From Smithellaceae bacterium (lineage in GTDB: Bacteria; Desulfobacterota; Syntrophia; Syntrophales; Smithellaceae): a stretch of 64,000 nt of DNA. A program made the translations under genes and the position numbers. The notes below the pieces were generated by a model. The model made no database searches, was not told where the DNA came from, and saw only the letters and a program-made list of their open reading frames with translations. Below are positions 44,503 to 60,688 of this stretch, one piece after another. The stretch lies in contig JBEKMF010000001.1 of assembly GCA_050008655.1 (NCBI GenBank), positions 1,445-65,444 of the forward strand, written 5' to 3'. How positions within the stretch are numbered: position 1 is the first letter of the stretch; each line of letters opens with the position of its first letter.

Positions 44503-46677
44503 TTAAAAAATGTTTTTTAAAAACTCTAAAACTTTAGCGTTTACCTGCTCGGCTTCTTTTCCCCGCAATATCCCGTGATGATTGGCCTCGATTCGGATAA
44601 GTTCCTTTTTGGGAGCACCAAGTTTTTCCAATATTTCCCGCCCGCTTACCGGATTCACTACCGGATCTTCCGACCCTTGTATGACCAGTGTCGGGTCTTT
44701 GATGTATTTAAGTCGCTCTTCAACGGTATTCATAAGTTTTTCGAGTTCATTCACCCCGCTGACAGGATTGCGCAGGTAATTTATATCTGGATTTTCCGGG
44801 TCGTTGGCAATGAATTCCATTTTCCCTTTGTTTGTGTTCATTTTCGAAAGGAATTTGTTCCAGGCGACAACCACGGATGAAAGCCTGGAGGAAATATTTT
44901 GAAGCTTTAAAGGAGCATTAATCGATATTACTTCCACAAATCTGCCGGGCTTATTCGAAGCCTGCAATAAGGCTATTCCCGCGCCTGTGGAAAAGCCGCC
45001 AATGGCAAAAGATTTCAGGGAATTTTTCATGATGATGTATGCCCTGCTTACAGAATCATACCATTTTTGCCACTTGCAGCCTGCCAAATCTTCCGGGGAC
45101 GTACCATGCCCCCGCAGACGCGCGCCATATACGTTGTAGCCCTTCTTATAGAGGTAATCCGCCAGCGGCCTAATCTCTTCAGGGGCCGCCAAGTATCCGT
45201 GAACTAGGATCACCCCTTTATTACAGAAGAAATGCTTCAGAAAAAAAGGAGCTCCGATATTTTTGGGCTTGCTCTCGCCTTTTATATAATACTGTTGATA
45301 GTCTTGGTCAAAAAGACGCTTATCCAGTTCGATAAAGTGATTCCTTATCTTCATGCGGATAAAACCATCAGGCAGGAGCATTAGACGATCCAAGGACTTG
45401 GTGAGCTCCTGAAGAGGCTCTATCTCATTTTTGAGAACCTCAATGATATTATCCTTCCGGATAGTTTGGAAATCATATTTTTTGCTGAAAAGTTTTCGAT
45501 TTTTGATAATCATCCCGTCTTTTATAGTAATAAAATTATCGGCTGTCGCGGCCTTTATAAAACTTTCGTATTCTTCATGATAATCATCCGTGAGAAGATA
45601 GAACTGCTTTTTATTCAGAGACGTATGATAGTTCGTCAAACCGCTGGCGCGTAAATGTTCGATCGCCAGAAAAACGCGGTTTTTAAAATCGTTTTCACTA
45701 ATTTTGTTTCTACTGTATTTTGTCAAGATATAAGAAAAAAGATGATCATGATTAACGGTCGTCATGGAGTATATGGCATCCATATAATCATACATAATTT
45801 CGATATAGAGCTTTTTAAATGGAGAAACATACTTCAATTCTCCGGGATGCAAATAAAGATTATTATCCGCCAGCATCTTTTTCACTCCCACGCTCGCCGT
45901 GATATATGTTTTCATTGGTATCGGCTGGCCGAAATTAATATCGATATCCACACCGTCCATAATCATGGAGCCTTCGACTTGCATCTCTTCTTCAAACCGC
46001 GCTGAAACCTTATCGACAAATATATTAACAAGCTTGTTGATAGCGTTATTCCTCGCCCGGATCGGGTAATAGGTAATATTTACCGGCACAATATATGTTT
46101 CTTTCTGGAGAATTCGGTCTAAATCCGCGGTATCAAAACCGAAGTGTTTCGCGATTTGAGTAATAGACGAATCATCGCCTCTGTCGCGCAGGAGGCGTAA
46201 TTCTTCGCGAATGAACTGGGAGCGCAGAGCGATCCGCCCCGCGCCGGTATGGGGAGGCCGCCTGATTCCGGTATTGTAGACCATATACTTGCCCTTCTCG
46301 ATAATCTTCTTGTCCTTTATCATCTGGCCTTCCGGGTAAATAATGACCGGGTTAGAATCGGTAAGAAGCGCGTTGATAAGCAGTGTATCCCTGTTGGGGT
46401 CCTCAGTGGAAATTCCACCTAATCTGTCCATAAGCTCGCCCATTTTCCCGCCAAAAAAAGAGCTGTCCGCCAGAGAAATGGGATATTTTTTTATGCTCTT
46501 TTTGATTATGTAGGGCATCAAAATTGTTTCCATCCGCGTAAAGTGATTGATGACATAGAGAACAGGCTGGTCAGGCACTCCTTCAGTTCCATGCAGGCGT
46601 ATATCCGTGCCCGATGCTTTAAATACGACATCGAGTGTGACTATAATGGTTTTAATCAGAGTATTTGATATATTCAT
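44503..46677 (-). CDS. fusion protein: N-terminal PlsC-like acyltransferase plus C-terminal alpha/beta hydrolase (lysophospholipase/esterase-like)
   Basis: N-terminal NHFTRME (an HX4D-type variant) and YPEGQ-type motifs. C-terminal VHGYLAAPEE, nucleophile elbow GFSTGAG, GSEDPVV and a C-terminal His. About 220 aa in the middle are unassigned. Confidence 0.65.
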   Translation of the reverse strand: MNISNTLIKTIIVTLDVVFKASGTDIRLHGTEGVPDQPVLYVINHFTRMETILMPYIIKKSIKKYPISLADSSFFGGKMGELMDRLGGISTEDPNRDTLLINALLTDSNPVIIYPEGQMIKDKKIIEKGKYMVYNTGIRRPPHTGAGRIALRSQFIREELRLLRDRGDDSSITQIAKHFGFDTADLDRILQKETYIVPVNITYYPIRARNNAINKLVNIFVDKVSARFEEEMQVEGSMIMDGVDIDINFGQPIPMKTYITASVGVKKMLADNNLYLHPGELKYVSPFKKLYIEIMYDYMDAIYSMTTVNHDHLFSYILTKYSRNKISENDFKNRVFLAIEHLRASGLTNYHTSLNKKQFYLLTDDYHEEYESFIKAATADNFITIKDGMIIKNRKLFSKKYDFQTIRKDNIIEVLKNEIEPLQELTKSLDRLMLLPDGFIRMKIRNHFIELDKRLFDQDYQQYYIKGESKPKNIGAPFFLKHFFCNKGVILVHGYLAAPEEIRPLADYLYKKGYNVYGARLRGHGTSPEDLAGCKWQKWYDSVSRAYIIMKNSLKSFAIGGFSTGAGIALLQASNKPGRFVEVISINAPLKLQNISSRLSSVVVAWNKFLSKMNTNKGKMEFIANDPENPDINYLRNPVSGVNELEKLMNTVEERLKYIKDPTLVIQGSEDPVVNPVSGREILEKLGAPKKELIRIEANHHGILRGKEAEQVNAKVLEFLKNIF

Positions 46678-47513
46678 AAGTTTTTACCTTCGCTTTTTTG
46701 AGTTTGTTTTATATCTGCCAATACTGCCTTTAATATGTCCGGTTTATTAGTAAAAATCCCGCTGACACCCGACTTGATAAAACGATGCATGTTTTTTTTA
46801 TCGTTTACTGTATAGATATTTACCGGAATATTATTTAATTTAAGATTCATAAGCCATTTCTTGCTAAGCTCATTTTTGGAGCAGTTGAAGGCATCGGCTC
46901 CGAGTAATTCAATTATCTCCGAAGGCAACTTTGATCCATAATATTCTTTTTCAAACAACACTGCAGCAGCCATTTTGACGGCAGCCGCTACAGTGCGATC
47001 TATTTCCTTGAGATGTTTAATGGCCCGCGGATCAAAGCTGGAGAACACTACGTGCTCCCGCATCCCTTTCATCTCAACAATGTTCATGCTCTTTTCCTCA
47101 ATGCCGTTCCGGATTTTTTCATCAACTGCTTCGGTCTTGATTTCAATGTTTACTGCAATTTTATTACGGCAAAGGTTTAACACCTCCTCCAGAGTTGGTA
47201 TCGTTGTACCTTTATACTCTTCGCCAAACCAGCTTCCCGCATCCAGTTTTTTTAGCTCGGAAAGGGCGTATTCGGCAATCCTGCCTTTACCATTCGTGCA
47301 GCGCGTTAGTTTTTCATCGTGAAATACCACCACTTCTCCGTCCCTGGTCAGTTGAACATCGAGTTCGATCATATCGGCACCCATCGAGATCGCCCCCTGA
47401 AATGATTCAATGGTGTTCTCCGGGTAATAGGCGGAAGCGCCGCGGTGGGCGATGGCTGTAAATTCGTCACCTTTAATATAGTTGTATTTAAATAAATAAT
47501 ACGGTTTTCCCAT
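46674..47513 (-). CDS. glycerophosphodiester phosphodiesterase
   Basis: Motifs IAHRGAS..YPENT, ELDV and FHD. The stop overlaps the start of the downstream fusion gene. Confidence 0.9.
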   Translation of the reverse strand: MGKPYYLFKYNYIKGDEFTAIAHRGASAYYPENTIESFQGAISMGADMIELDVQLTRDGEVVVFHDEKLTRCTNGKGRIAEYALSELKKLDAGSWFGEEYKGTTIPTLEEVLNLCRNKIAVNIEIKTEAVDEKIRNGIEEKSMNIVEMKGMREHVVFSSFDPRAIKHLKEIDRTVAAAVKMAAAVLFEKEYYGSKLPSEIIELLGADAFNCSKNELSKKWLMNLKLNNIPVNIYTVNDKKNMHRFIKSGVSGIFTNKPDILKAVLADIKQTQKSEGKNL

Positions 47514-48589: not shown

Positions 48590-50014
48590 TTATTTTTTGG
48601 ACAGATACTCATGAATCGCTTTGGCTGCTTTGCGTCCCGCACCCATCGCCAAAATTACTGTTGCCGAGCCCGTGACAATATCGCCGCCGGCATAAATACC
48701 CTCGCGGCTGGTGAGTCCCGATTCGTCTTTAGTAATAATATAGCCGCGCTTGTTTGTTGTGAGTCCCGGTGTAGTTGCCGGCACGATGGGATTGGCCATC
48801 GTCCCTACGGCCACAACAACGGTATCGACATCTATCACAAATTCCGATCCTTTGATGGGTATGGGGCTTCTTCTTCCTGAAGCATCCGGCTCGCCCAATT
48901 CCATCTTGATACATTTGACGCCGGTGACCCAACCCGCGGCATTACCGATATATTCCACAGGGGCGGTCAGCATCAAAAACTCCACACCTTCTTCCCGGGC
49001 ATGATGAACTTCTTCTTTACGTGCGGGCATTTCCACTTCGGTACGGCGATAAATTATCATGGCTTTCTCGGCGCCTAAGCGTAGCGCCGTGCGCACCGAA
49101 TCCATAGCCACATTACCGCCGCCAATTACTGCCACACGCCTACCTCGAACAATCGGGGTATCATATTCGGGAAAGCGATATGCTTTCATTAAATTCGATC
49201 TGGTTAGATATTCGTTAGCGGAATAAATGCCGCTTAAGTTTTCACCGGGGATATTCATAAAAACAGGCGCTCCTGCGCCTACGCCGATAAATACCGCGTC
49301 ATAACCCTCGGCAAAAAGTTCATCAATGGTTTTAGTGCGACCAATGACAAAGTTAGTCTCGATTTTTACGCCCAGCTTCTTTAAATATTCCACTTCTGCT
49401 TCGACGATGGCTTTGGGCAGACGAAATTCCGGAATACCGTAGACAAGCACGCCGCCGGCCTTATGTAAGGCCTCAAATATTGTCACATCATAACCCAATT
49501 TGACTAGATCGCCCGCAATAGTAAGGCCTGCAGGGCCCGCGCCCGCAATAGCTATCTTCTTGCCATTGGTTTTAACTTTGGGAGGAATTGTTACCTTGCC
49601 GGCACTGCGTTCATAATCGGCGGCAAAGCGCTCCAGGCGGCCAATGGCCACCGGTTCGCCCTTTTTACCCAGAATACATTGTTTTTCGCATTGATCTTCC
49701 TGCGGACAAACCCGGCCGCAAACCGCCGGAAGACTATTCGTTTCTTTTAACTTTTTGGCAGCTTCGACGAATTTCCTTTCGGCGATATCTTTGACAAATT
49801 CAGGAATTTTAACATCGACAGGACAGCCGCCGATGCAGCCCGGCTTTTTGCATTGGATGCAGCGTTTGGCCTCGGCTATCGCTTCTTCCTCGGAATAGCC
49901 CAGAGGCACTTCTTCGAAATTGGCGACCCTCTTTCGCGGATCCTGCTCGGGCATCTTTTGCCGCGGCACTTTTTCCTTCTTTTCCTTAGGTTCCTTAGTT
50001 TCCATCGCACCCAC
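48590..50014 (-). CDS. nfnB: NfnB / SudA-type NADPH-dependent oxidoreductase (GltD-like, homotetrameric glutamate synthase family)
   Basis: N-terminal Fe-S motifs (CIQCKKPGCIGGCP, CGRVCPQEDQCEKQC), two dinucleotide folds (GAGPAGL, GGGNVAMD) and GGDIVTG. An alternative start at 50005 is possible. Confidence 0.8.
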   Translation of the reverse strand: MGAMETKEPKEKKEKVPRQKMPEQDPRKRVANFEEVPLGYSEEEAIAEAKRCIQCKKPGCIGGCPVDVKIPEFVKDIAERKFVEAAKKLKETNSLPAVCGRVCPQEDQCEKQCILGKKGEPVAIGRLERFAADYERSAGKVTIPPKVKTNGKKIAIAGAGPAGLTIAGDLVKLGYDVTIFEALHKAGGVLVYGIPEFRLPKAIVEAEVEYLKKLGVKIETNFVIGRTKTIDELFAEGYDAVFIGVGAGAPVFMNIPGENLSGIYSANEYLTRSNLMKAYRFPEYDTPIVRGRRVAVIGGGNVAMDSVRTALRLGAEKAMIIYRRTEVEMPARKEEVHHAREEGVEFLMLTAPVEYIGNAAGWVTGVKCIKMELGEPDASGRRSPIPIKGSEFVIDVDTVVVAVGTMANPIVPATTPGLTTNKRGYIITKDESGLTSREGIYAGGDIVTGSATVILAMGAGRKAAKAIHEYLSKK

Positions 50015-50831
50015 ACTTATGCAGCTCGTAAGCCTGACGTTCGGAATCGCAATACATCTTCAGCCGGTCGGCAAGCAGCTTATAATCAACTTCGTGGCCG
50101 TCGAATTCCGGGCCGTCCACACAAGTAAATTTAGTTTTCCCCCCAACAACAACGCGGCAAGCGCCGCACATTCCCGTCGCATCGACCATAATGGAATTAA
50201 GGCTTACGATTGTCTTGATGCCCCGCGGCCGGGTAACATCGCTTACCACCTTCATCATCGGCACCGGACCAATGGCAAAAACTCGGTCGATTTTCTCGCC
50301 CTTATTGATCAAATCTTCTAGCACCTGGCTCACAAATCCATGGAAACCGTAACTGCCGTCATCCGTGGCTACAATTAGTTTATCAGATATTACGCCCATC
50401 TCCTTTTCCAAAATGAGCAAATCCTTTGTTCGCGAACCAATGATCGACATTACCTCGTTGCCCGCTTTCTTCAGGGCAACGGCTAACGGATAAACAACGC
50501 CTACGCCTACGCCGCCGCCAATGCAGACCACGCGTCCGTAATTTTTGATCTCCGTGGGATTACCGAGCGGCCCCTGCACATCCTGAATCGTGTCGCCAAC
50601 TTTCATCTTCGCGAGCATTGCCGTCGTTTTACCGACGACCTGAAAGATAGCCGTGATGGTTCCGGACTGAGCATCGGAATCGACGATGGTCAGCGGTATG
50701 CGTTCACCTTTTTCATCGATTTTCAAAATGATGAACTGGCCGGCCTTTCTCTTCTCGGCGATAACCGGTGCTGTGAGCACCATCTGAACGACATTTTCGG
50801 ATAAATTCTTTTTTTCGACGATCTTATTCAA
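49995..50831 (-). CDS. nfnA: NfnA / SudB-type ferredoxin-NADP reductase-like subunit (PyrK family)
   Basis: FAD/NAD-binding barrel (GQFIILKI, GERIPLTI, IGGGVGV) and a C-terminal 2Fe-2S motif (MVDATGMCGACRV...CVDGPEF). Confidence 0.8.
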   Translation of the reverse strand: MNKIVEKKNLSENVVQMVLTAPVIAEKRKAGQFIILKIDEKGERIPLTIVDSDAQSGTITAIFQVVGKTTAMLAKMKVGDTIQDVQGPLGNPTEIKNYGRVVCIGGGVGVGVVYPLAVALKKAGNEVMSIIGSRTKDLLILEKEMGVISDKLIVATDDGSYGFHGFVSQVLEDLINKGEKIDRVFAIGPVPMMKVVSDVTRPRGIKTIVSLNSIMVDATGMCGACRVVVGGKTKFTCVDGPEFDGHEVDYKLLADRLKMYCDSERQAYELHKCGCDGN

Positions 50832-50852: not shown

Positions 50853-50877
50853 AAAAAAAGGGAGTCCAACGGCTCCC
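50853..50877 (-). terminator. rho-independent terminator after the flxA-like gene
   Basis: The minus strand reads GGGAGCCGTTGGACTCCC followed by TTTTTTT. It separates the flx/hdr transcription unit from nfnAB. Confidence 0.7.
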
Positions 50878-50932
50878 TCTATATATGCAAATCTCCGATT
50901 CATCAAGTCCCTAACCGAAACATTAATGAATA

Positions 50933-51772
50933 TTAGTACTCTTTGGTCAGCTTATCCAACTCCGCCAGAGAAAAGACAGGGCCATCTTTACAAACATATT
51001 TGCTGCCTACATTACAGCGGCCGCACTTACCAATGCCGCACTTCATCCTCATTTCCAGGGAGGTGATGATATTCTCCTTCGAAAAGCCAAGATCGAAAAA
51101 CACCGGCAGTGTAAAACGGATCATCACCGGCGGTCCACAGATTACAGCCACAGCGTTTTCCTTGCTGGGAGCAACTTCCTTACATACTGCAGGAACAAAA
51201 CCTTCCCTGCCCTTCCAGTCGGCATCTCCCTTATCTACCGTTACATTAAGATTTAAGTCGCTTCTTTTACCCCATTCGGCCAATTCACCTTTGTAAAGCA
51301 AAAGCCCGGGAGTTCTGGCGCCGTAAATAATCGTGATCTTGCCGAAACGTTTTCGGTTATCTTCGTGAATCATGTAATTAATCAGAGACCGCAACGTCGT
51401 AAAAGCGAATCCGCCGCCGACAATCACAATGTTTTTACCCTCCAGATATTTGAGGGGCCAGGAATTACCCAATGGTCCGCGGATACCCATTAATGCGCCT
51501 TCTTCCATCTCATGCAACGCCGTGGTTACAACTCCGGCTTTCTGGACGGTGAATTCCACATATCCCTTTTGGGTCGGCGATGATGCTATCCCTATGGGCG
51601 ATTCGCCCTTGCCGTAGATGGAGAGTTCGCCGAATTGTCCCGGAATATACTTATATTTTTCTTCATCTTCCGGGTTTACGAATGTAAAACGAAATGTCTT
51701 GATGTCTTTCGTATCCACTTCTGTGATTATTTTGTCTACCTTTACAGGAATCGGTACATACTGATTTTGCAT
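50933..51772 (-). CDS. FAD/NAD(P)-binding oxidoreductase with C-terminal 2Fe-2S, FlxA/HydG/AsrB-like
   Basis: Motifs PGQFGELS, RGPLGN, VGGGFAF and MKCGIGKCGRCNV...CKDGPVF. Confidence 0.7.
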   Translation of the reverse strand: MQNQYVPIPVKVDKIITEVDTKDIKTFRFTFVNPEDEEKYKYIPGQFGELSIYGKGESPIGIASSPTQKGYVEFTVQKAGVVTTALHEMEEGALMGIRGPLGNSWPLKYLEGKNIVIVGGGFAFTTLRSLINYMIHEDNRKRFGKITIIYGARTPGLLLYKGELAEWGKRSDLNLNVTVDKGDADWKGREGFVPAVCKEVAPSKENAVAVICGPPVMIRFTLPVFFDLGFSKENIITSLEMRMKCGIGKCGRCNVGSKYVCKDGPVFSLAELDKLTKEY

Positions 51773-51786
51773 TACTAACTCCCTAA

Positions 51787-52809
51787 TTATAATTTTGAAA
51801 TATCTTCAACAATTTTTCTAATATCTATATTAACGGGACAATACATGACGCAGCGACCACAACCGACGCAGGAAATTGCTTTAAAATTATCGACGTAATA
51901 CTTGAATTTATGCATGGTGCGTTGACGCCATCTTTCCTTCTGCGAAGGACGCGGATTGTGACCTGACGTTTCCTTGGTAAACAAGGGGAACATACAGGAA
52001 TCCCACGACCTAATGCGAACACCGTCGCTGCCTTTCACTTCATCGCTGATATCAAAACAATGACAGGTGGGACATAGATATGTACAAGTACCGCAAGCCA
52101 AACATTTAGAGTGAATTGTGTTCCAGAAAGGATGTTCAAAGTTATTATCCAAAATAGGCTTTATTTCATGAGCCGGAATTTTCGATGTAATGGCTGCTTT
52201 GGCCTTAGTGACAATTTCATTTTTCTTTGTTTCGGCTGCTGCATCCGCTTTGGTTTCACCAAAGTATTTAGCTAATTTTTCACCTTTTGGAGTGATAAAC
52301 TCGACAAGGTAGTCACTGCCGATATCTGTGAGAAGAATGTCTGCGCCTTCTGCGGATACGGGCTCACCATCAACCGATGTACAGAAGCAGGTAGTATAAG
52401 GAGGTTGCGAACAAGCTAGGGAAATAACCGTCGTGCTCTGTCTTTTGGCTACATAATAGCCGTCTTGATATTTTTCCTGATTAAAAAGTTTATCGAGCAG
52501 AAGAAAACTGTGGGCATCGCAAGGGCGAACACCAAACAATACCGATTCTTGTGTCTTGTTTTCGTCTGAGGAAAAAACCATGCCCTTTCCTGTACGGGTA
52601 TATTTCATCATAGTTTCCGTATGTGGGAAGAAAACATTTTTCGGCGCGTTCTTGGAATTCAAATAAGCAAAGAAAGGCTCGGCACCTTTTTGCAAGGGCT
52701 CAAAAAGAACATTATCTTCTTTTTTTACCGGCGCCCAAACCAGGAAGTCCCCGGCCATTTTCTTGGCAATGCCCGCTAGGGCATCTTTTTTAATTAAACG
52801 TTTTTCCAT
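51787..52809 (-). CDS. iron-sulfur protein, FlxB/HydB/AsrA-like
   Basis: CLACGTCTYLCPTCHCFD and CVGCGRCVMYCP motifs. Paired with the FlxA-like gene. Confidence 0.65.
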   Translation of the reverse strand: MEKRLIKKDALAGIAKKMAGDFLVWAPVKKEDNVLFEPLQKGAEPFFAYLNSKNAPKNVFFPHTETMMKYTRTGKGMVFSSDENKTQESVLFGVRPCDAHSFLLLDKLFNQEKYQDGYYVAKRQSTTVISLACSQPPYTTCFCTSVDGEPVSAEGADILLTDIGSDYLVEFITPKGEKLAKYFGETKADAAAETKKNEIVTKAKAAITSKIPAHEIKPILDNNFEHPFWNTIHSKCLACGTCTYLCPTCHCFDISDEVKGSDGVRIRSWDSCMFPLFTKETSGHNPRPSQKERWRQRTMHKFKYYVDNFKAISCVGCGRCVMYCPVNIDIRKIVEDISKL

Positions 52810-52955: not shown

Positions 52956-53804
52956 TCAAATCAACTGCAATTTTTTCAAAAGCGGTTGTGGATTAAACAT
53001 ATGGGATTTAAACGTATCCTTTGATCCGTCCAAACCCATCGCCAGAGCAATTAATTCCGTGAAATAAAACACCGGAAGTTTTAATTTGCTACTGGGGCGC
53101 ATATCCAGATTGGCCATACAAAGAGGACAGGCGGTGACCACGCAATTGGCGCCGGCTTCTCTCGCCGCGCTCATCAATTTATCGCACATATCGACGACAA
53201 TTTTTGTCTTGCTGATGGCTAATGACCCGCCACAGCAATCTGTTTTGTAAGACCATTTTTTTACATCGGCGCCGATTGTGCCCAATATTTTATCGAGCAT
53301 AAAAGGATTTTCATAGTTTTCAAACTCGCAAACATCAGGTGGTCTTAAAAGCAGACAACCATAATACGAAACCGGTTTCAATCCGATCAAGGGTTTGACT
53401 ACCTTTGCCGTCAGTGTGTCAATGCCAATCTCATTAAAAATGATATCAATAGGATTGCGGATAGCAATGCCTCCCTGATACTTGGCGCCAACCGCATCTT
53501 CAATCTTTGTTTTTAATTTCTTATCGGTCTTCAAATGATGTTCGGCCATTTTGAAGCGATTGAAGCAGGCGGCACAGGGAACCATTACATCCAGAGCGTT
53601 TTTTTCCGCGGAAATCAGGTTACGCGCCGAAAGAGCAATGGCTAAGTCAAAATTTGTGCTGTGCGCAGAGGAAGCTCCGCAGCAAGACCAGTCATCAACT
53701 TCTTTCAGTTCTATGCCCAGAGCGGAACTTACCGACTTCATGGACTGATCATATTCTTTTCCCGTCGCATGCAGCGAGCAGCCCGGATAGTATGAAACTT
53801 TCAA
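52956..53804 (-). CDS. hdrB: heterodisulfide reductase subunit B-like (two CCG domains)
   Basis: Motifs YYPGCS, WSCCGAS, VPCAACF, YYGC, TDCCGGS and TACPLCMANL. Confidence 0.85.
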   Translation of the reverse strand: MKVSYYPGCSLHATGKEYDQSMKSVSSALGIELKEVDDWSCCGASSAHSTNFDLAIALSARNLISAEKNALDVMVPCAACFNRFKMAEHHLKTDKKLKTKIEDAVGAKYQGGIAIRNPIDIIFNEIGIDTLTAKVVKPLIGLKPVSYYGCLLLRPPDVCEFENYENPFMLDKILGTIGADVKKWSYKTDCCGGSLAISKTKIVVDMCDKLMSAAREAGANCVVTACPLCMANLDMRPSSKLKLPVFYFTELIALAMGLDGSKDTFKSHMFNPQPLLKKLQLI

Positions 53805-53825: not shown

Positions 53826-54353
53826 TTACAAATGCTTTGTTTTCTCAAATATATCTTTTACCGACTTCATATCCTTCGTACGCGGAGATAGAAGCGACAA
53901 CTTGCCCTTCATAAACATACCCGGAGCCATTAAAACGTCCGAGAACAGGTCCAGAGATTTTAATTTGTACTGGGCCATCATCATTGGCTCATTGATACGT
54001 CCACCTCGTTTAATTCCGGCAAGGAACGCTTCATGGAATTTCAATATATTCTTTTCGCGAGCACCGATACCTTCTTCAATAGCCATCTGCCTTAGCACAT
54101 CCATCATTCGGGCGATATCGATCTGATTGGGACACCGCGTAATGCATGTTTCACAAGACAAGCAAATCCAGATTGTCGAACTGTTCAGCACCTCATCGCG
54201 CTTGCCATTCTGTATCATTCTTACAACCTTGTTCAGGTTATATTCCATATGCGCTGCCACGGGGCAGCCGGCTGTGCATTTACGACACTGATAACATCGC
54301 TGTAGAGGCACACCGTTGATCTTCTTGTTTACTTCTTCCAGAAAAGTTTCCAT
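53826..54353 (-). CDS. hdrC: heterodisulfide reductase subunit C-like (2 x [4Fe-4S])
   Basis: CYQCRKCTAGCP and CLSCETCITRCP motifs; 175 aa. Confidence 0.85.
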   Translation of the reverse strand: METFLEEVNKKINGVPLQRCYQCRKCTAGCPVAAHMEYNLNKVVRMIQNGKRDEVLNSSTIWICLSCETCITRCPNQIDIARMMDVLRQMAIEEGIGAREKNILKFHEAFLAGIKRGGRINEPMMMAQYKLKSLDLFSDVLMAPGMFMKGKLSLLSPRTKDMKSVKDIFEKTKHL

Positions 54354-54377: not shown

Positions 54378-55388
54378 TTATGGGTTGAAGATAAATTCTT
54401 CTTTATCATGATGTTCATCATATTTACCGAGCGGTGGCATATCTTCCATCGAAGAGCCGGCACGGTTACTGAAAAGCTCCCAGCAATCTTTGTCGATCTT
54501 TTTCAGGAATTTGCGCAAGTCAACGCCCATGGGACAAACGGCAACGCAAGAACCGCAATCGACACAGCGTCCGACCATATGATAGAGGCGCATCAACTGA
54601 AATACCTGCGTATCTGTTTTATCTTCACCGATGCCCACCCACTGCGGCTGGCTCTGCTCAACAAAACAAGTGGGGCAGTAGCAGGAAGGACAGGCCTGAC
54701 GGCAGGCATTGCAGCGTATGCACTTTTCCATCTCCTTGGTAAAATAGGCAAAACGTTCTTCTATTGATTTGGCTTCAAATTCCTTCACGTCATTATATTC
54801 GGCATCGGGATTCATGGCGGGAGCATTTTGGCCGACCATGACATCGGAAATTATCGGATTATTGAAACGGCAGGTGCGGCAGCTGTCAGCCAGCACGTCT
54901 TTTAATGCGACTGCCTTTTCCCCATCCGGGGTTTTCATCTTGATCTGCCCGTTTTCTATCGATCCTTCCACTATATCTGCGCCATTGATAGCCGCTTTCA
55001 ATTTCTTCCCATCCAGATAACCTGTGCAGGGCACGCCGATGATATAGACTTCATCGCGGCCATATTGTCTTTCCTGCAAATGGATGATCAGCGAACGAGT
55101 AGTACAGCCACGGGCAACAACACCGATAACTTTTTTCTTCCGGTCTTCCGGTTTAACCCGCTTTTGTGAGTTTTTGTGCGCCGTTATCAGATCATGCACG
55201 AATTTAGCCAAATTCTGCGTACAGAGATTATTCCATACGAGTTTGTCGGCTTCTTCCGGCGTGGTGATAAAACAAGGTGTTGCCGTGAGTGGAAGCGTGC
55301 CTTTTTCATAGCCGATAATCACGTCGGCCTTTTTTTCCAAAAGCAGCCTTTTTGCTTCTTCCCGCAATTTTGTCTCGATGTTTTCCAC
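54378..55388 (-). CDS. iron-sulfur oxidoreductase subunit, FlxC/HydB-like (uncertain)
   Basis: CIRCNACRQACPSCYCPTCF and CVDCGSCVAVCP motifs. The N-terminal Cys-containing domain (ARGCTTRS, GVPCTGY) is unassigned. Confidence 0.5.
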   Translation of the reverse strand: MENIETKLREEAKRLLLEKKADVIIGYEKGTLPLTATPCFITTPEEADKLVWNNLCTQNLAKFVHDLITAHKNSQKRVKPEDRKKKVIGVVARGCTTRSLIIHLQERQYGRDEVYIIGVPCTGYLDGKKLKAAINGADIVEGSIENGQIKMKTPDGEKAVALKDVLADSCRTCRFNNPIISDVMVGQNAPAMNPDAEYNDVKEFEAKSIEERFAYFTKEMEKCIRCNACRQACPSCYCPTCFVEQSQPQWVGIGEDKTDTQVFQLMRLYHMVGRCVDCGSCVAVCPMGVDLRKFLKKIDKDCWELFSNRAGSSMEDMPPLGKYDEHHDKEEFIFNP

Positions 55389-55425: not shown

Positions 55426-55866
55426 TTAACCAATTTTCTTTACTAATTTTTTGGCCGGCCCTAAAGCTTTAACTTTGGCAGTAACGCCTCTAATCACTTG
55501 AGCAAAACGGTCACCTTCGGATGCAGAAACCCAAGTAAACATGGTTCTATCACCCTCCATACCGATATACGACAAAAAGCTCTTTAAAGCGGCAAACTTC
55601 CGGCGCGCCACTAAATTTCCGGAGATGTAATGACACTCACCCGGATGACAACCGGAAACCAGAACGCCATCCGCTCCGCCTTGCAAGGCTTTGACGATAT
55701 AGAAAGGATTAATTCTTCCGGTGCAGGGAACACGGATAATTCTTACATTCGGTGGATACTGAATTCTGCTGATACCGGCCAGATCGGCTCCGGCATAAGT
55801 GCACCAGTTACAGACAATAGCAACAATTTTCGGCTCCCAATCTTTCTTTGCCACATTCTCAGCCAT
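55426..55866 (-). CDS. mvhD: MvhD/FlxD-type hydrogenase iron-sulfur subunit D
   Basis: Motifs IVAIVCNWCTYAGADLAG, IRVPCTGR and GADGVLVSGCHPGECHY. Confidence 0.9.
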   Translation of the reverse strand: MAENVAKKDWEPKIVAIVCNWCTYAGADLAGISRIQYPPNVRIIRVPCTGRINPFYIVKALQGGADGVLVSGCHPGECHYISGNLVARRKFAALKSFLSYIGMEGDRTMFTWVSASEGDRFAQVIRGVTAKVKALGPAKKLVKKIG

Positions 55867-55905: not shown

Positions 55906-58900
55906 TTAGTTTAAATTTTCCATCTGTGCCAATACTTCTTCGTTATTGAAACCGTTGAGATCAACTGCATTCATACGGCAGGATGCCGTACAGACACCGC
56001 ATCCTTTACATAAAACGGTATTGACGACCGCGCAGCCTTCCTTAAGATCTACCTGGATCGCGCTATATGGACAATTGATTTCACAAAGACCGCAAGCCGA
56101 ACATCTATCCTTATTGACATAAGCCGTCTTACCTTCCGCCTCTATGAAATCAAGAGTGAGGATTGTGCAAGCGCGTGACACTGCGGCATTCGCCTGAGTT
56201 ATTGATTCGTCACTGAACTTGGGCGAATGCGCCATGCCGCACATAAACACACCATCTGTCTGGAAATCAACCGGACGTAATTTCACGTGCGCTTCGAGGA
56301 AGAAACCGTCTTGATTGGTGGGTACCTTCAGCATTTGACCGATGGCCGCATTTTCGGGATTCGGCACAACGCCGACACTCAGAGCCACAATATCTGCCGG
56401 CAAAACAATCGCTTCATTAAGAATCGGATCAAATACTTTTACTTCGACTTTGTTGCCTTTGGCTATCACTTCCGGTTTCCTATCCTCTTCGAAAGATATA
56501 AATTTGATATTGGCTTCACGCGCTTTTTTGTAATAGTCCTCTTTAAAGGCAAAAGTGCGAATGTCACGGTAAAGAATTGTGATATCGCGGGAGGGATCGG
56601 CAGCTTTAAGTTCCAGTGCATTTTTAACTGCCTCGGAGCAGCAATAACGGCTGCAATAAGGTCTCTCTTTATCGCGCGAACCTACACATTGGATCATTAC
56701 GACATTTTTCACCGCGGCCAGTTTCGGATCTTTTTCGTAAACCAGAGTTTCCAGCTCTCTTTGCGTCTTCACTTTGGCATTTTGGCCGTAGAGATATTCT
56801 TTGGGTTTGTTCTCATTAGCACCGGTGGCTACGATCACCACGCCATGCTCGAAAACTTTTTCGCCTTCTTTAACCTTAACCGTGGTTTTGTAATTGCCGA
56901 TAAACCCTTCGATCTTTTCAATCCTGGCGCCGGTGGCTACTTGGATTAAAGGATTCTTGTAAACTTTTTCCAAAAGACTCTTCAAGTGAGAGCGAGTATC
57001 CAAACCTTCCAGAGTTTTATAGAGGTGATTGTAATTGCCGCCCAGACGTTCTTCTTTTTCCACAATGAACGAAGCAAAACCCTGATCGGCCAGTGACAGG
57101 GCAGCAGTCATGCCGGCCAAACCGCCGCCGATGATCAAAGCCTGATGATTCACAGAAAGCTGACCTGGTTTCAAGGGTTTCAGATATTGCGCCTTGGCCA
57201 CAGCCATGCGTATCAAATCTTTAGCTTTTTCCGTCGCCGCCTGAGGTTCATTCATATGCACCCAGGAATCCTGATCGCGAATATTGGCCATCTCGAACAA
57301 ATATCTGTTTAAACCGGCCTTCTCGCAGTTTTCCTGGAACAAACCTTCATGTGTGCGCGGTGAACAGGAGGCCACAACAACTCTCGTGAGATTTTTTTCT
57401 TTGATGACTTCGGCCATCTTCACGGCCGTATCCTGCGAACAGGTGAACAGATTGTCAGCGGAATAAACTACTGTGGGCAATGTCGCGGCATAATCTCTGA
57501 CGGCGGGTACATCTACTACACCGCCAATGTTGATGCCGCAATGGCAGACAAATACGCCGGTACGCACTCCCGTGCCACGTAAATCTTTTTCTTCCGGATT
57601 TTCCACCGCGGTGATCAGCGTGCCGCGCTGTGAAGCCAGAAGTCCTTCCGCACAGGCAGCGGCGGCACTGGCTTCCATAACCGTTTCGGGAATATCCTTC
57701 GGACCACCGAAAGCGCCGCAAACAAAAACGCCCGGACGAGAAGTCTGCACCGGATTTTCCAACTGTGTTTTGCAGAATCCATGCTCTTCCAACTCTATCC
57801 CCAGACTGCCCGCAAGCTTCTTGGCCTCTTTAGGCGGCATCAGACCGACGGAGAGAACAACCATGTCGAATTCTTCTTCGGTGAATGTTCCGTCCTGATT
57901 GACATATTTAATCAGCAGATTATTCCTCTGCTGTAGTTCTTTGATTGCTGACGGCATCGAACGGATGTAACGAATGCCGTATTCTTCTTTGGCACGATTG
58001 ACAAAACGGTCAAAATCCTTGCCATGGGCGCGAATGTCCATGTAGAAAATTGTCGGTTCCAGACCCTTGGCATGTTCTTTACCGATGATGGCTTCTTTGG
58101 TCGCATACATACAGCAAACCGACGAACACCAGCTGTTGTCGCAGGAGACGTCGCGGGAACCTACGCATTGAATGAACGCGATTTTCTTTGGTTCTTTGCC
58201 ATCGGAAATTCTCTGTACATGGCCGAAGAACGGCCCGGATGCGGATAGAATTCGTTCAAACTGAATGGCGGAAACAACATTTTTATAAATACCGTATCCA
58301 TATTCGCCGCGGATACGGGCATCAAATATTTCAAAACCGGGCGAGGCAATGACGGCGCCTACTTCGATGATTTCTTCTTCAACTTTCATGTCGTGGTCAA
58401 CAGCTTTGGCAATACAAGCTTCCACACACTGATAACATTCGGAGCATATGCCGCAATTCAAACAACGCAGTGCCTCGGCCACAGCTTGAGCTTCATCAAA
58501 GCCAATGCCGACTTCCTTGAAATTGGTTCGGCGATCTTGCGGTTTCATGAGGGGATATTTCACGCGGGGACTCTTGGGCACATCAGAAACATCGGCCTTG
58601 TCCGCCAGGTCTTTGGTCCAATCTTTTTCGCGTCCGGCCTTAATATCTTCACCCAAGAGATAACGATTGATGGACTTGGCTGCTTCTTTACCTGAATAAA
58701 CAGCCTTAACGACCGTCTGAGGACCGGTGACCACGTCACCACCGGAAAATACGCCAGCAATGTTTGTCGCGTAAGTAATCTTATCGTAATCGATATTGTT
58801 CCATTTGTTGATGGAAACGCCGCTTTCTTTGGTAATGAAAGAGAGGTCGGCTTCCTGGCCGATAGCGGGAACGATGGCATCGCATTGGACCATAAATTCC

Positions 58901-60333
58901 GATCCTTTGATTTCAATGGGTCGGCGGCGACCACTCGCATCCGGTTCGCCAAGCTCCATGCGCGTGCATTCGATACCCGTAACTTTCCCGTTCTTGCCGA
59001 GAACCCGCTTCGGGGCAACGAGGAATTTCATCTCGATTCCTTCTTCCATGGCTTCTTCGATTTCCTCCGGTGATGCGGGCATTTCCGCGCGGGTCCGGCG
59101 ATAGAGAATGAAAACATTCTTGGAGCCGGTGCGCACAGCCACGCGGACGGCATCCATGGCTACGTTACCGCCGCCAATAACAGCTACTCTGTCACCCAGA
59201 GAAACTTTTTTACCAAGATTGATCTGCATCAGATAATCAACGCCATGAACCACTCCCTGCATATCCTCGCCGGGAATGTTGAGCTTACTACTCTTCATCG
59301 TACCGCAGCCGATGAAGATCGCGCTGTAATCTTTCCGGAGCTGATCAAAGGAAATATCTTTGCCGATTTTTGTATTGAGGTGAATCTTCACACCCAGGTC
59401 TTGAATGACTTTGATTTCCGCATTGAGAATATTCTTGGGAAGACGGTATTCGGGAATGCCAACAGCCATCCAGCCGCCTGCGACCGGCAGGGCTTCAAAA
59501 ACTTCTACATCATAGCCTTCGATGGCCAGGTAGTAAGCACAGGTCAGACCCGAGGGACCGGCGCCGACAACAGCTACCTTCTTCCCTTTGCTTTCTTTCT
59601 TTTCGGGCAGGTAACGCGTATCGCCACTTAGATCGAGATCCGCAACAAAACGCTTCAGGTGCATAATATCGATGGGATCGTCCACTTTGCCCCGCATACA
59701 GGCCGTCTCGCAGGGATGGTTGCAAACGCGTCCGCAAACAATGGGAAAAGGGTTATCCTGTTTGATAAGTTTGAGTGCTTCTTTAAACTTGCCCTGACCA
59801 ATCAAGGCCACATAACCCTGAACACTGATATGAGTAGGACAATTGGCTTTACAGGGAGAGGTTCCCAGTTTATCGATGGCAAAACCGCTGGGAATAGCCT
59901 GAGGGAAATGGCGGAAGATAGCTTTTCTTTCACTCAAATTACCATTAAATTCAGCTTTTATAGAAACCGGGCAAACATTAGCGCAATCACCGCAACCTGT
60001 ACATTTATCCAGATTAACAAAACGCGGCGCTCTGGTTAATTTAACTTTAAATTTTCCCGGTTCACCTTCGACCGACTCCACAGTCCGTAGTGTTTTAATT
60101 TCGACATTGGGATGGCGCCCTACTTCCACCAGTTTCGGCGACAATATGCAGGCGGAACAGTCATTTGTGGGAAAAGTCTTGTCCAGTTGCGCCATGACGC
60201 CGCCGATACTGATCCCGTTTTCGACCAGATATACTTTCATTCCGGAATTGGCTAAATCGAGAGAGGCCTGAATGCCGGCGATTCCCGCACCAACAACCAT
60301 TACTGCACCAACTTTTTCGTTATCTTTTAGCAC
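55906..60333 (-). CDS. giant HdrA-like flavoprotein (HdrL-type): HdrA module interrupted by a GltD/NfnB-like module, fused to a second complete HdrA module
   Basis: 1475 aa. Four dinucleotide folds (GAGIAG aa 15-20, GAGPSG about 257, GGGNVA about 387, GGGLAG about 1069). Two CVGSRD motifs. Fe-S motifs at about 111, 161-211, 624-640, 1411-1452. The GltD-like block (aa about 155-570) aligns with the NfnB encoded at 48590. Confidence 0.85.
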   Translation of the reverse strand: MLKDNEKVGAVMVVGAGIAGIQASLDLANSGMKVYLVENGISIGGVMAQLDKTFPTNDCSACILSPKLVEVGRHPNVEIKTLRTVESVEGEPGKFKVKLTRAPRFVNLDKCTGCGDCANVCPVSIKAEFNGNLSERKAIFRHFPQAIPSGFAIDKLGTSPCKANCPTHISVQGYVALIGQGKFKEALKLIKQDNPFPIVCGRVCNHPCETACMRGKVDDPIDIMHLKRFVADLDLSGDTRYLPEKKESKGKKVAVVGAGPSGLTCAYYLAIEGYDVEVFEALPVAGGWMAVGIPEYRLPKNILNAEIKVIQDLGVKIHLNTKIGKDISFDQLRKDYSAIFIGCGTMKSSKLNIPGEDMQGVVHGVDYLMQINLGKKVSLGDRVAVIGGGNVAMDAVRVAVRTGSKNVFILYRRTRAEMPASPEEIEEAMEEGIEMKFLVAPKRVLGKNGKVTGIECTRMELGEPDASGRRRPIEIKGSEFMVQCDAIVPAIGQEADLSFITKESGVSINKWNNIDYDKITYATNIAGVFSGGDVVTGPQTVVKAVYSGKEAAKSINRYLLGEDIKAGREKDWTKDLADKADVSDVPKSPRVKYPLMKPQDRRTNFKEVGIGFDEAQAVAEALRCLNCGICSECYQCVEACIAKAVDHDMKVEEEIIEVGAVIASPGFEIFDARIRGEYGYGIYKNVVSAIQFERILSASGPFFGHVQRISDGKEPKKIAFIQCVGSRDVSCDNSWCSSVCCMYATKEAIIGKEHAKGLEPTIFYMDIRAHGKDFDRFVNRAKEEYGIRYIRSMPSAIKELQQRNNLLIKYVNQDGTFTEEEFDMVVLSVGLMPPKEAKKLAGSLGIELEEHGFCKTQLENPVQTSRPGVFVCGAFGGPKDIPETVMEASAAAACAEGLLASQRGTLITAVENPEEKDLRGTGVRTGVFVCHCGINIGGVVDVPAVRDYAATLPTVVYSADNLFTCSQDTAVKMAEVIKEKNLTRVVVASCSPRTHEGLFQENCEKAGLNRYLFEMANIRDQDSWVHMNEPQAATEKAKDLIRMAVAKAQYLKPLKPGQLSVNHQALIIGGGLAGMTAALSLADQGFASFIVEKEERLGGNYNHLYKTLEGLDTRSHLKSLLEKVYKNPLIQVATGARIEKIEGFIGNYKTTVKVKEGEKVFEHGVVIVATGANENKPKEYLYGQNAKVKTQRELETLVYEKDPKLAAVKNVVMIQCVGSRDKERPYCSRYCCSEAVKNALELKAADPSRDITILYRDIRTFAFKEDYYKKAREANIKFISFEEDRKPEVIAKGNKVEVKVFDPILNEAIVLPADIVALSVGVVPNPENAAIGQMLKVPTNQDGFFLEAHVKLRPVDFQTDGVFMCGMAHSPKFSDESITQANAAVSRACTILTLDFIEAEGKTAYVNKDRCSACGLCEINCPYSAIQVDLKEGCAVVNTVLCKGCGVCTASCRMNAVDLNGFNNEEVLAQMENLN

Positions 60334-60491: not shown

Positions 60492-60506
60492 TTGACCATC
60501 GGTCAA
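60492..60506. promoter_or_regulatory. perfect palindrome TTGACC-atc-GGTCAA upstream of the hdrL-like gene
   Basis: 15-bp dyad 160 nt upstream of the 60333 start codon, nested between a 10-bp inverted repeat (GCCGGACAAA 60393-60402 / TTTGTCCGGC 60516-60525). The cognate regulator is unknown. Confidence 0.3.
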
Positions 60507-60688
60507 GAAAAATATTTTGTCCGGCTCACTTTAAATGTTATGGTAAAAAAATCAGTATTAAATCAATGGCTTTAACTGAAAAAAGCTTGTCTGATATCAT
60601 TTATTACCTTAACTATAACCTTAATATAACTATTTCTTTACAAATATCAAATTCAGGAACTTGGCCCTCTTCCGGATTTCACTGACAA

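Follow-up and report, generated by a model that had tools for sequence, protein, structure and literature searches.

Within a 64,000-nucleotide (nt) stretch of a Smithellaceae genome (assembly GCA_050008655.1, contig JBEKMF010000001.1; hereafter the window), we analysed hdrL, a gene on the minus strand (positions 55906-60333) whose product of 1475 amino acids (aa) joins two modules of heterodisulfide reductase subunit A (HdrA) to an NADP(H) cassette of the NfnB/GltD type. Re-ordered alignments demonstrate directly, at the sequence level, that this cassette is circularly permuted relative to NfnB, and the domains lost from the two HdrA modules are complementary. The reading that we favour, to which we give slightly better than an even chance, is that the protein would hold one HdrA-type bifurcating flavin, with a high-potential exit to HdrBC and a low-potential exit through the cassette to NADP+. 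The gene is a Smithellaceae member of the already named, biochemically uncharacterised HdrL type.

A fused protein with a permuted NADP(H) cassette

A sequence-only reading of the window had described hdrL as an HdrL-type fusion of HdrA with a GltD-like central block, and this was borne out by domain searches, structure alignments, an AlphaFold model, a fold search and the literature. HdrA-type models of Pfam and NCBIfam matched both ends of the protein (E=1e-288 to 1e-200), and GltD/NfnB-type models (PF07992, PF14691, PRK12771, TIGR01316) matched aa 158-650 (E=1e-177 to 1e-104), which confirms the nature of the central block; a PDB sequence search returned methanogen HdrA chains (E=1e-187) together with NfnB-type chains. 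Each motif named in that reading was located exactly in the 1475-aa translation: the flavin adenine dinucleotide (FAD) motifs GAGIAG (aa 15-20) and GGGLAG (1069-1074); the cassette motifs CGRVCNHPCETAC (200-212), GAGPSG (257-262), GGGNVAMD (387-394) and GGDVVTG (531-537); the cysteine motifs CTGCGDCANVCP (111-122), CLNCGICSECYQCVEAC (624-640) and VFVCHCGINIGG (927-938); CVGSRD at aa 723 and 1216, CCMY at aa 740, and two CxxCxxCxxxC motifs within aa 1411-1452 at the C-terminus. The predicted cofactor load is three FAD sites, one NAD(P)H site and nine [4Fe-4S] sites. The protein is soluble, with no membrane segment; its highest 19-residue Kyte-Doolittle mean, 1.78, falls in the HdrA-aligning TrxR2 core of the second module.

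That hdrL is an assembly chimera or a pseudogene is extremely improbable. The reading frame is uninterrupted from a GTG start, preceded 7 nt upstream by GAGGAG as ribosome-binding site, to a stop codon at 55906-55908, and the guanine-plus-cytosine content is even along the gene. An orthologue scan in which each species was represented by a single genome yielded 80 loci, and 75 of them carry full-length HdrL orthologues (70-96% identity) in different genomes, including the closed long-read chromosomes OY821638.1, OY820932.1 and OY761459.1; because full-length orthologues recur in this way, the chimera that the sequence-only reading had raised is ruled out. Nearly all of these loci are labelled Smithella, Smithellaceae, Syntrophaceae or Syntrophales. 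In the protein database there are more than 120 HdrL clusters at 90% identity, each 1449-1502 aa long and sharing 74% identity or more with the query, and an architecture survey (HMMER scan with aa 1-1200 against 1.84 billion representatives of 50% identity clusters, top 150 matches classified) placed at least 21 clusters at 50% identity in the full HdrL architecture. Every predicted ligand residue is conserved: the ligand Cys are all invariant in 71 Syntrophales orthologues and invariant or present in 19 of 20 members of a diverse set, while the non-ligand Cys265, 343, 484, 731, 854, 894, 1003, 1389 and 1434 vary among HdrLs. Two loci on contigs binned as 'Thermoplasmatota archaeon' and 'Elusimicrobia' (L068 and L071) carry fragments 88-92% identical to the Smithellaceae hdrL operon, and these contigs are probably mis-binned.

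To map the first module, the central block was removed and the remainder aligned to the solved HdrA of M. thermolithotrophicus, whereby aa 11-155 aligned to HdrA 146-290 and aa 630 to ~897 to HdrA 293-562. Because the alignment ends at HdrA 290 and resumes at 293, the insert stands in for only two HdrA residues, which follow ...IDK and precede the Cys that opens the second ferredoxin motif. The proposal that an NAD(P)H module splits the inserted ferredoxin domain between its two cluster motifs is upheld. Sequence alignments and the fold search place the cassette at 58447-59868 on the minus strand (aa 156-629). It consists of a core (58639-59862; aa 158-565) and a displaced N-terminal segment (58453-58620; aa 572-627, ending RC624LNC627), joined by a variable linker (aa 566-571/589). 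The insert had been given as aa ~155-570; its start held, and its end moves to aa 629 so as to take in the N-terminus of the NfnB fold, which has been displaced to aa 572-627. BLASTP of the cassette against the NfnB encoded elsewhere in the window (48590-50014) gave 187/412 identical residues (45%, E=9e-119), in agreement with a by-eye estimate of ~45%.

The permutation is visible in several ways. The displaced segment, aa 572-627, aligns to residues 5-55 of the window NfnB with a Smith-Waterman score of 120, versus 31 +/- 6 for shuffles. In the native order, BLASTP returned two high-scoring segment pairs, one covering NfnB 60-471 and the other NfnB 17-55 (E=9e-10), and a re-ordered construct (aa 572-627 followed by aa 157-565) gave a single colinear alignment of 455 columns to NfnB 17-471 with a gapless junction (RCLNC-GTSP-CKANCP versus RCIQC-KKPG-CIGGCP in NfnB). 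The fold is opened within the first cluster motif, where the cut falls after the second Cys and before the third. Alignments of aa 91-660 to the NfnABC and StnC chains 9bov_A, 9n5u_A and 8oh5_C of the PDB extend beyond the GltD core, via the linker, to ...EAxRCLxCG and run through aa 637-653. An AlphaFold2 model of aa 1-920, built from an alignment of 36 sequences at 38-88% identity, has a mean predicted local distance difference test score (pLDDT) of 90.3 and a predicted TM-score of 0.86, with the displaced segment at pLDDT 90-96. The linker at aa 566-589 is the least conserved part of HdrL (16% mean pairwise identity versus 39-55% in the defined domains); the inter-module linker at aa 901-920 has 31%.

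By analogy with the ligand sets of dihydropyrimidine dehydrogenase and with StnC, the distal cluster of the cassette would be bound by C624, C627, C161 and C212, and the proximal cluster by C165, C204, C208 and Lys227. By this analogy, one 17-residue stretch (C624-x2-C627-x2-C630-x2-C633-x2-C636-x3-C640) would provide ligands for three clusters, namely the distal cluster of the cassette and both clusters of the HdrA ferredoxin domain. Cys three residues apart in ordinary 2x[4Fe-4S] ferredoxins bind clusters about 12 Å apart, so this three-cluster seam argues for a continuous wire. A literature search for circular permutation of NfnB-type domains returned only irrelevant hits (barley 'NFNB' disease), and the StnC paper is silent on permutation.

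The cassette is also not a copy of NfnB in its residues. It matches the NfnL-like domains of NfnABC and StnC at E=1e-134, 1e-127 and 1e-119, with 51% identity to 9bov (Csac NfnA), versus E=1e-106 and 1e-104 for NfnB of NfnAB, and Foldseek likewise ranked 9bov_A (Csac NfnABC NfnA; root-mean-square deviation (rmsd) 2.7 Å over 481 columns), 9n5u_A (T. sibiricus NfnABC) and 8oh5_C (StnC) ahead of NfnB chains. Lys227 corresponds to StnC Lys170 and aligns with the Glu that acts as cluster ligand in NfnB of T. maritima, of P. furiosus and of the window; this position is Lys in 18 of 20 diverse full-length HdrLs. Ser421 aligns with P. furiosus NfnB Arg333, and 19 of the 20 have a residue other than Arg there. 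A 9-residue NfnB loop is missing from the cassette, as it is in the NfnABC/StnC group. Bifurcating NfnBs retain Arg333, which their monofunctional relatives have lost (PMC12221290). The StnC flavin is non-bifurcating by structure and mutagenesis (PMC10482914), and NADPH enters Csac NfnABC through the homologous domain, with bifurcation at the BfuBC flavin (PMC11829005). Because the signature residues are those of non-bifurcating proteins and the StnC/NfnABC relatives do not bifurcate at this site, the cassette is most likely a non-bifurcating NADP(H) port of the same kind. The ports of StnC (8oh5) and of NfnABC NfnA (9bov, 9n5u) share with it the permuted order with RCLxCG after the core, the Lys at the proximal cluster, insertion into a host Fe-S wire protein and a YRRT NADPH motif; they differ in having a NuoG/Fdh-like host, with bifurcation at the HydBC/BfuBC flavin, whereas the host of the HdrL cassette is HdrA. 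NfnB of NfnAB (4ylf, 5jca and the window protein) shares the fold, the FAD, the NADPH site and two [4Fe-4S] clusters but, unlike the cassette, is unpermuted and has the Glu ligand, Arg333, the extra loop, an NfnA partner and a bifurcating flavin.

If the cassette were nevertheless truly NfnB-like, two bifurcating flavins could work in series, with the low-potential branches of cassette and HdrA meeting, as Chadwick et al. suggested for HdrA-NfnB fusions of anaerobic methanotrophic archaea (ANME-1). Fold and cofactor sites do match NfnB chains (TM-score normalised to target length (TMt) 0.81-0.83, rmsd ~2 Å), Arg297, the equivalent of P. furiosus NfnB Arg201, is invariant, and one relative carries the NfnB-like Glu and Arg. 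We nonetheless consider this arrangement quite improbable for the window protein, which has Lys227 for the Glu and Ser421 for Arg333, whose nearest relatives of solved structure, the StnC and NfnABC ports, are non-bifurcating, and whose operon has no NfnA-type partner, the true nfnA lying past a terminator-like site with its own nfnB. The relative in question, P0137 (1504 aa), is the only diverse HdrL with both Glu at 227 and Arg at 421, and its cassette is a candidate for a true bifurcating site.

As in NfnB and StnC, strand beta-2 of the window cassette is followed by YRRT, which favours NADPH as the coenzyme. About half of the diverse HdrLs (P0121-P0151) have CLE(S/P) instead of YRR(T/S) at this place. 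By the usual Rossmann-fold rule, CLES after beta-2 favours NADH, and the split suggests NADPH-specific and NADH-specific HdrL sub-families.

Complementary losses in the two HdrA modules

The first module is encoded in three pieces on the minus strand. The first part of its TrxR1 core (60019-60312; aa 8-105) aligns from HdrA 146 and carries GAGIAG and a TFPTNDC59SAC62 loop in which Cys62 corresponds to HdrA Cys197; the C59/C62 pair is present in 19 of 20 diverse HdrLs. The first half of the inserted ferredoxin domain follows (59869-60018; aa 106-155; aligned to HdrA 241-290), with invariant C111/C114/C117/C121. Beyond the cassette, the second half of this domain and the rest of TrxR1 (57634-58446; aa 630-900; aligned to HdrA 293-562) hold C630/C633/C636/C640, the HA4/E4-type cluster Cys723/736/740/741 and Lys746, the flavin N5 lysine equivalent to M. 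thermolithotrophicus HdrA Lys409, which is invariant in 36/36 sequences. The alignment to the solved HdrA showed neither the HdrA N-terminal domain nor its C-terminal ferredoxin domain in this module. In the AlphaFold2 model the Cys59/62 loop has a pLDDT of about 58. Foldseek against the PDB superposed the HdrA part on the arm-less HdrA core chains 8rvu_a and 8rwn_A (TMt 0.95, ~898 columns across the insert), and module 1 was therefore assigned as a static HdrA core.

The second module, also on the minus strand, begins with an N-terminal domain (57160-57573; aa 921-1058) that aligns to HdrA (8rvu) from residue 11 and in which the invariant C930/C932/C965/C990 form an HA3/E3-type 'shuttle' cluster site. 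The TrxR2 core (56134-57159; aa 1059-1400; aligned to HdrA 146-245 and 326 to ~575) holds GGGLAG, the HA4-type Cys1216/1227/1231/1232 and Lys1237, and a C-terminal 2x[4Fe-4S] ferredoxin domain with 8 invariant Cys (55909-56133; aa 1401-1475) is expected to be the docking side for MvhD. Taken as a whole, aa 921-1475 align to HdrA (8rvu) 11-245 and 326-650, the inserted ferredoxin domain (~80 aa, HdrA 246-325) being skipped, and the loop equivalent to TFPTxDCxxC has no Cys in the window protein or in 19 diverse relatives. The second HdrA had been called full; with these losses, complementary to those of module 1, it is not. The canonical four-domain HdrA set is found in neither module alone and is complete only when both are taken together, and for this reason one complete bifurcating unit, rather than two, is most likely. 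Between the two TrxR cores, identity is only 28%.

A precedent for such an arrangement is BamE of the Geobacter metallireducens class II benzoyl-CoA reductase, a fused HdrA dimer solved by cryo-EM, in which TrxR1 holds the bifurcating FAD, Lys280, Cys59-Cys62, cluster E4 leading to the HdrBC-like BamD and E5/E6 as low-potential exit; TrxR2 is structural with its flavin off-path, and together with the N- and C-terminal parts it makes up an arm that meets an MvhD-like adaptor, while BamD passes electrons to an electron-transferring flavoprotein (ETF) (preprint 10.64898/2026.04.10.717634). HdrL has the same domain order (TrxR1 with Cys pair, Lys and inserted ferredoxin domain; N-terminal domain; TrxR2; C-terminal ferredoxin domain) and identical C59/C62 numbering, and K746 minus the insert falls at ~274, versus Lys280 in BamE. 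By analogy with BamE, we infer that modules 1 and 2 are complementary halves that fold as an intramolecular asymmetric HdrA pseudo-dimer. Unlike HdrL, BamE lacks an NAD(P)H cassette, passes electrons from its ferredoxin domain to the tungsten enzyme BamBC and takes its input from the HydBC-like BamGHI rather than from Flx; the second flavin is usually accompanied by Lys in HdrL and by Gln in BamE.

In a rival picture, which goes back to the sequence-only reading, two independent complete HdrA units share one chain with an NAD(P)H dehydrogenase; each HdrA module would then bifurcate on its own. Both modules do keep an FAD motif, HA4-type Cys and, mostly, the N5 lysine (Lys1237 is retained in 16 of 20 diverse HdrLs, versus Lys746 in 36/36). 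This picture is hard to reconcile with the complementary losses, by which each module is short of two out of four HdrA elements, with the off-path second flavin of BamE and with an operon that has only one mvhD, one hdrB and one hdrC, and we consider it quite improbable.

Operon context and proposed electron flow

The gene order is hdrL-mvhD-flxC-hdrC-hdrB-flxB-flxA, all on the minus strand with hdrL first, and all six downstream genes are kept in this order in 49 of the 51 loci with enough downstream sequence. The mvhD/flxD gene (55426-55866; 146 aa, FlpD family, 5 Cys; PF02662, E=8e-52) lies 39 nt downstream of hdrL, a position conserved in related loci. It is followed by a gene for a flxC-like Fe-S protein (54378-55388; 336 aa) with a weak FrhB/FdhB C-terminal match and 2x[4Fe-4S], which, compared by description, resembles Syntrophobacter fumaroxidans Sfum_0822 in domains and cluster position. 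The hdrC-like gene (53826-54353; 175 aa; TIGR03290, E=5e-22) encodes two CxxCxxCxxxCP motifs and the hdrB-like gene (52956-53804; 282 aa; PF02754 and TIGR03288, E=8e-49) two complete CCG motifs (C9..C41C42G..C77xxC80 and C159..C190C191G..C226xxC229). The last two genes encode a flxB-like Fe-S protein (51787-52809; 340 aa; sulfhydrogenase beta / AsrA type, Fer4_22) and a flxA-like FAD/NAD(P)H/[2Fe-2S] protein (50933-51772; 279 aa; sulfhydrogenase gamma / AsrB type). FlxA was considered as an NfnA-like partner of the cassette and rejected: HydG/AsrB-type models fit far better (PRK08345 1e-68 and AsrB 2e-57, versus only 1.5e-24 for NfnA-type PRK06222), and it pairs with the adjacent HydB/AsrA-type gene. 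Domain searches found no NuoF/NuoE-like genes in the operon and no AOR-type gene in its neighbourhood; given the latter, this is not a Bam complex.

The operon is thus a Flx(Flox)-Hdr gene set in which HdrL substitutes for HdrA. FlxABCD-HdrABC ('Hdr-Flox') of sulfate reducers and syntrophs (Ramos 2015, as cited in PMC7382037 and PMC5606693) shares with it flxA, flxB, flxC, flxD (= mvhD), hdrB and hdrC, and differs in having an ordinary HdrA in the place of HdrL and another gene order. The orthologous cluster on Smithella M82 scaffold 437 (locus L052) has been listed as 'Hdr/Flox' and proposed as a source of reduced ferredoxin in an organism without Rnf (PMC5606693), and Flox-Hdr has been called an 'uncharacterized syntroph-associated redox complex' (PMC7382037).

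A terminator-like hairpin with T-run follows flxA (50857-50880, minus strand) and is the likely end of the operon, and a sigma-70-like promoter match (TTGATA-16-TATATT; 60623-60650, minus strand) lies ~290 nt upstream of hdrL, both from a consensus scan only. The 355-nt region upstream of hdrL also contains the perfect palindrome TTGACCGATGGTCAA (60492-60506), which could be an operator or a recent lineage feature; elsewhere the pattern recurs, at a matching position, in no loci but the four most closely related ones (L001, L002, L018, L062), and its interpretation as a conserved operator was dropped. Beyond the terminator-like site lies a canonical nfnAB pair (48590-50831, minus strand), whose NfnA matches PRK06222 at E=1e-122 and whose NfnB has the Glu and Arg signature. 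With this site between flxA and nfnA, and with nfnAB adjoining the hdrL operon in only 10 of 44 related loci, nfnAB was not counted as part of the operon; the arrangement suggests a loose functional link via the NADPH pool.

Methanogen Hdr has a mobile arm, built from the donor module, MvhD and both terminal domains (N and C) of one HdrA, that serves FAD', HA4' and HA5' of the partner HdrA (PMC12350162). Roles could be assigned to the modules of HdrL because, once the cassette is removed, it is colinear with the published description of BamE down to the Cys59/Cys62 numbering. In the reading that we favour, the module 1 FAD would be the single bifurcating site, and the N/C-terminal 'mobile arm' of module 2 would dock MvhD and serve this flavin. 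The high-potential exit would run from Cys723/736/740/741 to HdrC and HdrB, and the low-potential exit from the shuttle cluster through the two ferredoxin-domain clusters and the distal and proximal [4Fe-4S] clusters of the cassette to the cassette FAD. NAD(P)H oxidation together with HdrA-type bifurcation in cis, as the sequence-only reading suggested, is plausible. More speculatively, electrons from NADH (or NADPH) may enter via FlxA-FlxB-FlxC-MvhD, the acceptor of HdrB may be a disulfide or, as for BamD, an ETF, and NADP+ at the cassette FAD may be the low-potential terminus. Exergonic reduction of the HdrB acceptor might then be coupled to endergonic transfer from NADH to NADP+, or the reverse, as a ferredoxin-independent transhydrogenase with the speculative net reaction 2 NADH + NADP+ + acceptor(ox) -> 2 NAD+ + NADPH + acceptor(red). 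This would be thermodynamically balanced at assumed in vivo potentials of about -280 mV for NADH, -380 mV for NADPH and -140 mV for the disulfide, and NfnAB next door could convert the NADPH into reduced ferredoxin. That HdrL-Flx-HdrBC is such a bifurcation-driven transhydrogenase, with NADP+ reduced on the same polypeptide through a covalently hard-wired three-cluster motif, is a tentative extension to which we assign a low probability.

Several points weigh against the single-flavin scheme with NADP+ at its low-potential end. With NADP+ as this terminus, driving force is wasted if the potential of the high-potential acceptor is more than mildly positive, and the ferredoxin domain might still be a docking site for external ferredoxin. 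About half of the diverse HdrLs have CLES, which suggests NADH-specific variants, so that a transhydrogenase role cannot be general across the family. Module 2, in which the FAD motif, all four HA4-type Cys (20/20) and in most cases the Lys are retained, may contain a second active flavin. The equivalence of HdrL and BamE was drawn from the published domain description and residue numbering, not from sequence, and our search of the open-access literature found no report of HdrL purification or activity.

HdrL could also do without bifurcation altogether, either as a wire from NAD(P)H to a disulfide or ETF, or with the cassette as a built-in ferredoxin:NADP+ oxidoreductase on the ferredoxin-binding domain of HdrA. 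NADPH-linked activity with ferredoxin or viologen is seen in StnC and in NfnB-like proteins that stand alone, and Strittmatter et al. proposed a simple NADH-to-sulfite path for HdrL (PMC2702500). We regard this as possible but not probable, as Lys746, Cys59/Cys62, the shuttle-cluster domain, MvhD and the three ports are all conserved and would be superfluous for a downhill wire.

Distribution, known HdrLs and biological meaning

HdrL was named in 2009 for an HdrA/glutamate-synthase fusion followed by mvhD, HdrL1-3 of Desulfobacterium autotrophicum HRM2 (Strittmatter 2009, PMC2702500), was later found as an abundant protein in sulfate-grown Syntrophobacter fumaroxidans, Sfum_0824 (Sedano-Nunez 2018, PMC5947623), and has also been invoked in Desulfurivibrio. 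The statement in the sequence-only reading that HdrL is known from Desulfobacteraceae and uncharacterised thus agrees with the literature (PMC2702500, PMC5947623, PMC9012536). By description, HdrL1-3 and Sfum_0824 resemble the window HdrL in being large HdrA/glutamate-synthase fusions with an NAD(P)H site and with mvhD following the gene, and the S. fumaroxidans cluster, like that of the window, includes an FdhB/FrhB-like Fe-S protein and hdrBC. The D. autotrophicum HdrLs are partly selenoproteins and lie beside dsr genes, whereas the window HdrL is all-Cys and from a Smithellaceae syntroph, and its cluster has flxA and flxB in addition, in place of a separate hdrA. In ANME-1, a ~500-aa NfnB-like insert interrupts the inserted ferredoxin domain of HdrA9-11, and in fused or tandem ANME HdrAs the N-terminal domain and Cys197 are split complementarily between the halves (Chadwick 2022, PMC9012536). 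The window HdrL joins in one protein the insert and the complementary halves that occur in different proteins in ANME, and its Cys197-bearing half comes first, the reverse of ANME HdrA3/4.

Among the top 150 matches of the architecture survey, the fused scaffold without the cassette (~1000 aa) accounted for at least 35 clusters at 50% identity, a single four-domain HdrA with the cassette (~1110-1135 aa, ANME-1 type) for at least 10, and stand-alone module 1 with the cassette (~910 aa) also for at least 10. The cassette-less scaffold was found in Thermodesulfobacteriota and in Asgard archaeal metagenome-assembled genomes (MAGs). Because the scaffold exists without the cassette and the cassette occurs in other architectures, the cassette has the look of a mobile module that was acquired by a fused scaffold already in existence. 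P0187 and P0294 (1016 aa), from MAGs labelled Hodarchaeota and Promethearchaeota, are cassette-less fused HdrAs with the HdrL domain order. We refrained from naming the cassette-less fused HdrAs as BamE, as their members carry only the name 'heterodisulfide reductase subunit A' and MAG labels. Eight further clusters (e.g. P0201, P0243, P0246, P0249; 1070-1290 aa) run from the N-terminal part of TrxR through the first ferredoxin motif, the cassette and the displaced segment to N-terminal-domain-like and C-terminal-ferredoxin-like matches, with no C-terminal part of TrxR detectable.

Elsewhere in the window, the only Rfam match is a cyclic di-AMP riboswitch (RF00379; 19526-19667, minus strand; 89.5 bits, E=1e-19) upstream of a 568-aa open reading frame (17585-19291, minus strand). 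Tandem genes on the plus strand encode signalling proteins of 748 aa (37853-40099) and 1232 aa (40185-43883), both of which combine several PAS domains with a receiver domain and have an HD/HD_5 (HD-GYP-like) domain at the C-terminus. At 44503-47513 on the minus strand, a 724-aa acyltransferase / alpha-beta-hydrolase fusion is followed by the overlapping start of a glycerophosphodiester phosphodiesterase, in what looks like a lipid-remodelling pair unrelated to hdrL.

Within the open-access literature, we did not find a description of the circular permutation and shared three-cluster motif, of the StnC-like non-bifurcating signature of the HdrL cassette, or of the YRRT/CLES split and the abundance of the cassette-less scaffold; each of these may be described elsewhere. 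The existence of HdrL will not surprise specialists. Hdr/Flox-type complexes are among the most widespread uncharacterised energy-coupling systems of syntrophs and sulfate reducers, and the analysis replaces vague labels ('HdrA-like polyferredoxin', 'FAD-dependent oxidoreductase') with a concrete and testable wiring diagram, in which there would be one bifurcating flavin, one arm made of module 2 and MvhD, an HdrBC exit and an NADPH port instead of ferredoxin. It also points to modular evolution, in that the same NADPH port has been inserted into a cluster-binding loop of two Fe-S scaffolds that are unrelated, one NuoG-like and the other HdrA-like. If the transhydrogenase reading is true, HdrL would be the first flavin-based bifurcating enzyme with a pyridine nucleotide on the same polypeptide as low-potential acceptor, and the HdrL complex together with NfnAB would provide a route from NADH to reduced ferredoxin in Rnf-less syntrophs. 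The wiring makes the role of Hdr/Flox in syntrophs a directly testable question and, if true, would reveal how syntrophs that lack Rnf, Smithella among them, keep NADH, NADPH and ferredoxin in balance so close to the limit set by thermodynamics.

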